Positions 49,779 to 51,588 of a DNA stretch of 64,000 nucleotides are shown here, in pieces. This stretch comes from Dehalococcoidia bacterium (GTDB taxonomy: Bacteria > Chloroflexota > Dehalococcoidia > GIF9 > JBFMDU01), in NCBI GenBank assembly GCA_034431935.1, contig DAOUCU010000059.1:2132-66131 (forward strand). Direction: 5' to 3'. The position numbers and the translations under genes were made by a program. The number at the start of each line of letters is the position of its first letter. Position 1 is the first letter of the stretch. The notes beneath the pieces were generated by a model. It was not told the origin of the DNA. It did not search any database and worked only from the letters and a program-made list of their open reading frames with translations.

Positions 49779-50780
49779 ATGAAGCGTGTCTTTTCCGGGG
49801 CCCGGCCGACGGGCCGCCAGCATATCGGTAATTACCTCGGCGCCATCCAGAATTACGTCAAGTTACAGGATGAATACGAGTGCGTCTACTGCGTGGTGGA
49901 TGTTCACGCGCTGACGACCATGGAGGAGACGGAGAAACTGGCCGAGAATACTCGTGAGATGATGCTGGACTGGCTGGCGGCGGGGCTTGACCCTGAGCGC
50001 AGCATTCTGTTCGTCCAATCGCACGTGCCTGAGGTGATGGAGCTTCACACCTTGCTGAGTATGGTGACCCCGCTGGGCTGGCTTCTGCGTGTGCCAACAT
50101 TCAAGGAGAAAGCACGTTCCCAGCCGCACAATGTCAACTACGGGTTGGTCGGTTATCCGGTATTGATGACTGCCGATATCATCCTTTACAAAGCCGAGGT
50201 GGTTCCGGTCGGTGAGGACCAACTGCCGCATCTGGAACTGGCGAGGGAGATTGTACGGCGTTTCAACACTATCTTCGGCGATACGTTTCTTGAGCCGCAG
50301 GCTAAGCTGACTTCATTTCCGATGGTGCTTGGTCTTGACGGGGCGCAGAAGATGAGCAAAAGTTACGGCAATACTATAGATTTGGTATTGACGGACGAGG
50401 AAACAACCCAGCGGGTAATGACAGCGGTTACGGACCCGGCACGCAGGTTCCGGAATGACCCCGGGCATCCTGATGTCTGCAATGTTTACCGGCTTCACCA
50501 GTACTTCAATGCTGGGCAGGCTAGTCTAATTCATAATGAATGCACTTCAGCAAAGCGCGGTTGTGTAGACTGTAAGAAGCAACTCGCGGTGAGCATGAAT
50601 ACCTTTCTGGCTCCGTTCCGCCAGCGCCGGGCTGAGTTAGCGGGCCGGCCTGATTATGTGGATGACGTGCTTGTGGACGGGGCCAGACGTGCCCGCGCCA
50701 TCGCTCAAGGGACAATCGCCGAGGTTCGCCAGAGAATGGGCTTCCTCAAACTGCCAGCGTCCAGACCTGTCAATGGTTGA
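49779..50780 (+). CDS. trpS: Tryptophan--tRNA ligase
   Basis: 333 aa. HIGH-type motif (TGRQHIGNYLGA) and KMSKS (KMSKS at QKMSKSYGN). Confidence 0.9.
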   Translation: MKRVFSGARPTGRQHIGNYLGAIQNYVKLQDEYECVYCVVDVHALTTMEETEKLAENTREMMLDWLAAGLDPERSILFVQSHVPEVMELHTLLSMVTPLGWLLRVPTFKEKARSQPHNVNYGLVGYPVLMTADIILYKAEVVPVGEDQLPHLELAREIVRRFNTIFGDTFLEPQAKLTSFPMVLGLDGAQKMSKSYGNTIDLVLTDEETTQRVMTAVTDPARRFRNDPGHPDVCNVYRLHQYFNAGQASLIHNECTSAKRGCVDCKKQLAVSMNTFLAPFRQRRAELAGRPDYVDDVLVDGARRARAIAQGTIAEVRQRMGFLKLPASRPVNG

Positions 50781-51588
50781 GCTTCCGCAATCGTCAAGCG
50801 GCCGCGATATTATGGATGTTGTTGACAGTGCGGCCAGGCAAGCCGGAGCGATTATCAGGGCGAGCTTCCGTGGCCATAACCAGGTCAAAGTCAAAGGCAG
50901 GAGCAATCTCGTTACTCAGGTGGATGTGTCAGCTGAGCAGGCTGTCCTCACAATCCTGCGGGCTGAGTATCCGGGATGTCCGGTACTTTCCTAGGAGACG
51001 AACAGTAGTACAGAGCTTTCCGGCTATACGTGGATAGTCGATCCTCTGGACGGTACTAACAATTTCGTTTTTGGCATACCCTTCCTGTGCGTTAACATTG
51101 CGCTGGTAAGAGATGGTGATGTTATCTTCGGTCTTACTTACGATCCTCTTCAGGACGAGTGCTTTCGTGCCCGGGCGGGATCGGGCTGTTTTCTTAATGG
51201 TGAGCGGATTTGCGTCTCATCACGCTCGAAATTAGAGGCCGCCATCGTAGGGTTTGACATCGGATATGACGTGAAATGGGGTGAGGAGGTATTTGAGTTG
51301 GCAAGTTTTCTCCGACCTGAGGTGCATAGCCTGAGGGTGATGGGTTCTGCGGCATTGTCTCTGGCGTATGTCGCCTGCGGCCGGCTGGACCTCTATTTTC
51401 ACAAGTACTTGTATCCGTGGGACACCGCACCGGGGATACTGCTGATCAAAGAGGCCGGTGGTATGGTTTCAGACTGGAACGGCCAGATGGCCACGCCGCT
51501 GACGCGCCAGATAGTCGGGGCGGGTGACGAGTTGAGACGGGAGTTCCTGCAATGGATAACAGGCCGTGGAATTGAAGGCAGGCGTTGA
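50773..51588 (+). pseudogene. suhB: Inositol monophosphatase (SuhB/IMPase family) gene interrupted by an in-frame TAG at 50992-50994
   Basis: Two same-frame ORFs (50656..50994 and onward to 51588) are separated only by TAG. Read-through gives ...[34 protein letters not shown]..., in which * aligns with the first Glu of the conserved metal-binding EE(S)G motif. The downstream motifs WIVDPLDGT and YPWDTAPGILLIKEAGG are intact. The start is ambiguous (ATG 50773, overlapping the trpS stop, or ATG 50812). Confidence 0.7.

Follow-up and report, generated by a model that had tools for sequence, protein, structure and literature searches.

A probable recent nonsense allele of an IMPase-family gene, with an amber codon at the metal-binding glutamate, in an uncultured hot-spring Chloroflexota bacterium

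In an uncultured Chloroflexota bacterium of a hot spring, an IMPase-family gene is interrupted by a single in-frame amber codon, which stands in place of a Mg-binding glutamate. Most probably, the gene lost its function recently through an ordinary mutation, and the codon is not a site of recoding. It lies in a stretch of 64,000 nucleotides, the whole of which is referred to here as the window, and its parts and nearest neighbours are listed in Table 1. A sequence-only reading of this DNA had described two ORFs in the same frame, parted only by the TAG, and the translation agrees: 271 codons are read in one frame, and the gene ends with TGA (51586-51588). The uninterrupted reading frame of a functional IMPase gene is broken by one in-frame stop at codon 74, which is the only internal stop.

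Table 1. Position of the interrupted gene, its parts and the genes on either side of it
Feature	Positions	Strand	Basis
trpS (tryptophanyl-tRNA synthetase), intact	49779..50780	+	gene-order comparison
IMPase-family (PF00459) gene, probable nonsense allele or young pseudogene	50773..51588	+	translation, Pfam, PDB matches, orthologue P0001
N-terminal fragment, 73 codons, expected translated part, without any metal ligand	50773..50991	+	public gene calls
In-frame amber codon TAG, codon 74, in place of Mg-binding Glu	50992..50994	+	translation, alignments, sister-lineage GAG
Part 3' of the stop, 197 codons, family motifs retained	50995..51588	+	translation, orthologue alignment
Convergent aminotransferase gene (PF00155)	51590..52795	-	gene-order comparison

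When the stop was masked, the joined product matched the Pfam family PF00459 (Inositol_P) with 194 bits (E=4.5e-57; cut-off 27 bits), and the match covered positions 11-254 of the 271 in the profile. Solved SuhB/IMPase chains were matched at E=1e-43 to 1e-34, the best being SuhB 3luz (E=1e-43), E. coli SuhB 2qfl (E=1e-41) and the T. maritima structure 2p3n (E=5e-40). Two motifs that had been called intact from the letters are so both in the translation and in the orthologue alignment: WIVDPLDGT is unbroken at 51031-51057, 3' of the amber codon, and WDTAPG at 51418-51435. The DPxDGT motif, with the equivalents of Asp90, Ile92, Asp93 and Thr95, is present at residues 87-98 and is invariant among the aligned orthologues. 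The C-terminal WD motif, with the equivalent of Asp220, reads YPWDTAPG (residues 214-221) and lies opposite CWDVAG of the human enzyme. The Glu70-equivalent metal ligand, which is the first E of EE[ST], is absent, its codon being TAG.

In comparison with the SuhB proteins of E. coli and Bartonella, the IMPase/FBPase of T. maritima and human IMPA1, the window gene is alike in its full-length match, its DPxDGT and WD motifs and its length; it differs in the stop at the Glu70-equivalent codon and in scores that lie below the equivalog cut-offs. These scores were 148.6 bits for NCBIfam SuhB (NF008027; cut-off 332), 155.9 bits for HisN (TIGR02067; cut-off 275) and 139 for the archaeal FBPase/IMPase family (cut-off 264), and the score for CysQ was likewise far under its cut-off. 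Hence, only the label 'IMPase family' is justified, and the name SuhB, which the gene had been given at first, is unearned.

In the alignments with the PDB chains, the stop falls on the first E of EES in both Bartonella and E. coli SuhB. Against human IMPA1, the stop stands opposite Glu70 and the register of the motif is unambiguous. Both alignments bear out the claim that the TAG replaces the first E of the metal-binding motif. Glu70 of IMPase is a ligand of Mg-I and the sole protein ligand of Mg-III (PMC4954947).

A comparison with orthologues had been proposed on the first reading of the locus, and it gave glutamate at the amber position in every orthologue in which the site can be read, among 27 inspected. 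All ten of the closest database homologues have SEE[TS] there. Glutamate was also found in the genome loci that were translated (17 loci from species-representative genomes, down to ~41% identity), with the exception of L028, in which the frame is lost upstream, and an interruption at codon 74 was not found among these loci. Every invariant column of the orthologue alignment is retained in the window gene, the glutamate excepted. Frameshifts elsewhere in the gene were observed in two of the orthologues, L027:874-1609 (LacPavin_0419_WC70L_MAG_53_9) and L028:6001-6791 (MFD03726.bin.2.102); trpS is also broken in the latter, and hence an assembly error is likely there.

A search with the Glu-restored protein returned thousands of homologues, and those with a named source all belonged to Chloroflexota or Dehalococcoidia MAGs. 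The best match (P0001) has 94% protein identity, is 271 aa long and uninterrupted, and is encoded in the same gene order on its contig (L001, JGI 3300060601). This contig and a second one of the same sister lineage (L006, Ga0315298) are ~93% identical to the window at the nucleotide level over 7-9 kb, and both have GAG at codon 74 with identical flanks. It follows that the TAG of the window represents a single G>T transversion at 50992. The intact orthologues on L001, L006 and L007 ('Chloroflexota bacterium MAG227'), with protein identities of 94%, 94% and 83%, share with the window the gene order, the 8-nt overlap with trpS and the gene length, and differ from it in having GAG (Glu) at the position of the TAG. 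Two side effects of the substitution on the local sequence may be recorded: the palindrome CCTAGG (50990-50995), an AvrII-type site containing CTAG, is made by it, and AGGAG, a Shine-Dalgarno-like core, is left directly after the T of the amber stop, with no start codon behind it.

The surroundings of the gene are conserved. The overlap with the trpS stop that had been reported from the sequence was confirmed and amounts to 8 nt, in that the ATG at 50773 lies ahead of the TGA at 50778-50780 (50773-50780, ATGGTTGA); the same overlap is present in the close relatives that were checked. The neighbours, which had been described as intact housekeeping genes, are indeed intact, namely argS, an MFS transporter gene, trpS, the aminotransferase gene, the gene for an AsnC-type regulator, gatA and gatC. 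On the sister-lineage contig L001, the order is that of the window (argS, MFS, trpS, IMPase, convergent aminotransferase, AsnC, gatA), and the order argS-trpS-IMPase/aminotransferase-AsnC-gatA is common to at least 13 further species of Dehalococcoidia/Chloroflexota (loci L007-L019 and L028; the region of conserved order, gatC included, is 45461-55144 in the window). The IMPase-family gene is part of the conserved core of the group, and the outright loss of such a gene is somewhat unexpected.

The amber codon is found in at least three other assemblies as well. An exact-protein look-up of the trpS product of the window gave six contigs, and the IMPase region was present in three of the loci that were fetched, from GCA_964523555.1 (L002), JGI 3300022548 (L003) and JGI 3300010308 (L005); all three have the TAG. 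They differ from the window at single positions: the first at 52967 (G/C), the second at 49501 (C/T) and 51577 (G/C), and the third at 51577 (G/C). The difference at 51577 is Gly269Arg in the variable tail and is the sole in-gene difference among the TAG haplotypes. In JGI 3300022548 and 3300010308, gene callers called the 73-aa product of 50773-50991. Three JGI/GEM contigs have a call for this N-terminal product, and in the public annotations the gene is broken up into pieces of 73 aa and of 96 or 82 aa. JGI 3300022548 is a SPAdes co-assembly of three layers of a hot-spring mat at Cone Pool (PMC7490370; bioRxiv 10.1101/2021.04.09.439258). The other TAG records probably come from the same site and in part from the same libraries or overlapping reads. 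The evidence for the TAG is therefore that of one near-clonal population at one place, not of independent populations, and it speaks to that population and not to fixation throughout the species.

Within this population, the site itself may vary. In the Logan assembly of SRR10519663, a run presumed to be from the Cone Pool libraries, the left contig stops at 50984 (...GGGATGTCCGGT) and the right contig starts at 50993 (AGGAGACGAAC...), so that the gap at 50985-50992 omits 8 nt, ACTTTCCT, the final base of which is the T of the TAG; its first base, 50985, is at the third codon position of Val71. The break corresponds to the ends of two Logan contigs, L004 (end at 4206) and L040 (end at 4291). 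Variants at 50985 and 50992, as the two ends of a bubble in the de Bruijn graph, would be expected to leave a short gap of this kind, with no k-1 overlap, and the contig break, though not the reads themselves, hints that SRR10519663 contains another allele at the TAG. It is possible, though we think it rather unlikely, that the TAG segregates in the mat population alongside an allele with GAG or some other sense codon, in which the gene is intact, and that the assemblers reported the TAG haplotype. The bubble-like gap that ends at the amber T argues for this, as does the fact that the same contigs run unbroken across the known SNP sites at 49501, 51577 and 52967. Against it, the break could reflect thin read coverage at this place or systematic errors in the reads, and the alternative allele appeared in no assembly or protein record found: in a search of 5.8 billion clusters with the Glu-restored protein, nothing above 94% identity was returned, and hence no intact allele of this strain, and from an 85-aa query, with 25 candidates scored, only the 73-aa fragment was returned, at 100% identity. 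A polymorphism of this kind would refine the main explanation, in that the TAG allele would still be null and the function would be retained in the population.

It had also been suggested at first that the stop might be a sequencing error, and on this account, the true codon would be GAG and the gene intact. The TAG is just one base away from the GAG of the sister lineage, the same Illumina libraries may underlie all of the assemblies, and the Logan graph is disturbed at the amber site. Yet the same T was obtained with different pipelines, in the SPAdes co-assembly 3300022548, in the second JGI assembly 3300010308, in the NCBI MAG and in the source of the window, and these assemblies disagree at other SNPs and hence are not copies of one consensus. 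Moreover, an Illumina substitution error would not normally survive into the consensus of contigs as long as these (14-67 kb). An error of the assembler or of the consensus is accordingly unlikely, and we regard an artefact of sequencing or assembly as very improbable. A scan of JGI metagenome DNA matched only the sister-lineage contig with GAG, and that collection evidently does not hold the Cone Pool contigs.

Translational read-through, which had been offered as a further option, finds no support at the locus. More ORFs of the window end in TAG than in either of the other stop codons (18 of the 47 long non-overlapping ORFs, against 16 in TAA and 13 in TGA), and it was concluded from this that the code is not reassigned; reassignment and a general suppressor were rejected on the same count. 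Among the genes that end in TAG are the AsnC gene, whose product of 159 aa has the same length as its orthologues, and a small gene on the reverse strand (12458-12787) that is DUF503-like by eye only. The other same-frame ORF pairs that are split by TAG proved to be separate genes (the 12458-12787 gene and the gene downstream of it; the AsnC and aminotransferase genes) or opposite-strand shadows, and no other TAG-interrupted gene was found in the 64-kb window. The stretch of 120 nt that runs on from the stop (50985-51104) folds no better than its shuffles (z=0.17), and the Rfam search at the amber site gave only a chance match to sR23 (E=0.84). Neither tRNA genes nor an IMPase paralogue were found in the 64-kb window; a paralogue that makes up for the loss, or a tRNA that suppresses the stop, may be present elsewhere in the genome.

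A G after UAG is reportedly an efficient context for termination in E. coli. Read-through of UAG by near-cognate tRNAs inserts mostly Gln, Tyr or Lys. Given what Glu70 does, we infer that neither these residues nor the bulky pyrrolysine could replace a carboxylate ligand of Mg. Known cases of programmed UAG recoding, such as pyrrolysine insertion and amber suppression (e.g. E. coli supE), resemble the window only in the in-frame UAG and the otherwise intact gene; they differ from it in that TAG is abundant here as a true stop, the position is that of a catalytic carboxylate and a recoding signal was not found. Programmed read-through at codon 74 is hence improbable. A functional gene whose UAG is read through or suppressed (by near-cognate tRNA, an amber suppressor tRNA or pyrrolysine) would fit with a conserved core gene that is otherwise intact and with the purifying selection on the window branch, but a recent mutation accounts just as well for the undamaged remainder of the gene, and an efficient suppressor would extend about one third of the proteins. 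With neither a tRNA, a stimulatory fold nor an Rfam element in the window, we give this reading very little credence. It is equally hard to believe that the gene is functional despite the amber codon by way of a suppressor tRNA that reads UAG as Glu and is peculiar to the strain, or of a TAG/GAG polymorphism that is stably kept. Reinitiation was also rejected: the first canonical in-frame start is the GTG at 51271, 92 codons downstream and beyond DPLDGT, and hence it could not yield an enzyme.

The age of the mutation was estimated from comparisons with the sister lineage. In this comparison, the IMPase-family gene of the window has a dN/dS (Nei-Gojobori) of 0.23, well under 1, and its neighbours argS, trpS, aminotransferase, AsnC and gatA have values of 0.07-0.17. 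With L007 (83% protein identity) as the outgroup, 12 synonymous and 8 non-synonymous changes were placed on the window branch, and 7 synonymous and 9 non-synonymous ones on the sister branch, where the gene is intact. As the higher ratio is also found on the intact sister branch, the slight relaxation is a property of the gene itself and not an effect of the stop, and since the window branch has no excess of non-synonymous change, the nonsense event is taken to be recent. The mutation is young relative to the ~7% divergence from the sister lineage. The first reading had named a recent nonsense mutation among its options and had set aside an old decayed pseudogene, and it holds up on both counts: the sister lineage has GAG, one G>T change accounts for the stop, which is the sole defect in an otherwise unbroken gene, and there is no additional decay on the window branch. 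That the gene was long dispensable in the lineage and is an old pseudogene in decay is already largely refuted and barely conceivable, for its dN/dS, somewhat above that of the neighbours, is found on the sister branch too, where the gene is unbroken, it has no frameshifts or further stops, it keeps the invariant family residues other than the glutamate, and the TAG haplotypes are only one base apart within it.

Under a recent nonsense mutation, GAG became TAG by the G>T transversion at 50992; ribosomes coupled from trpS would start at 50773 and stop at codon 74, releasing a peptide of 73 residues that lacks the metal ligands of the Glu, DPLDGT and WD motifs, and the phosphatase would not be made. 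Further decay would be absent only for lack of time since the mutation. As the next gene is convergent and on the other strand, the nonsense codon would have no polar effect downstream. In carriers of the allele, the function would be lost, unless a paralogue in the genome or a coexisting intact allele supplies the phosphatase.

For annotation, it follows that the locus should be recorded as an IMPase-family pseudogene or nonsense allele, in place of a pair of small ORFs, and an IMPase-family enzyme should be left out of metabolic reconstructions of this MAG. As the gene is a constant neighbour of trpS throughout Dehalococcoidia, its knockout in a wild population suggests either that the mat community can dispense with it or has a backup, or that the null allele occurs side by side with an intact one. 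The locus matters little beyond its annotation; a possible polymorphism of the site in the mat population is the only remaining point of interest.

Two further features of the window were observed. The MFS-type protein encoded upstream of trpS (47305-49704, forward strand) is 799 aa long and has a C-terminal extension of ~350 residues, which is rich in Arg and Gly and contains repeated 'EGLLH/GLLY...W' motifs. Its gene has a dN/dS of 0.29-0.42 against the sister lineage and evolves far faster than its neighbours, with indels mostly in the C-terminal extension. The GC skew is positive over nearly all 64 kb of the window.
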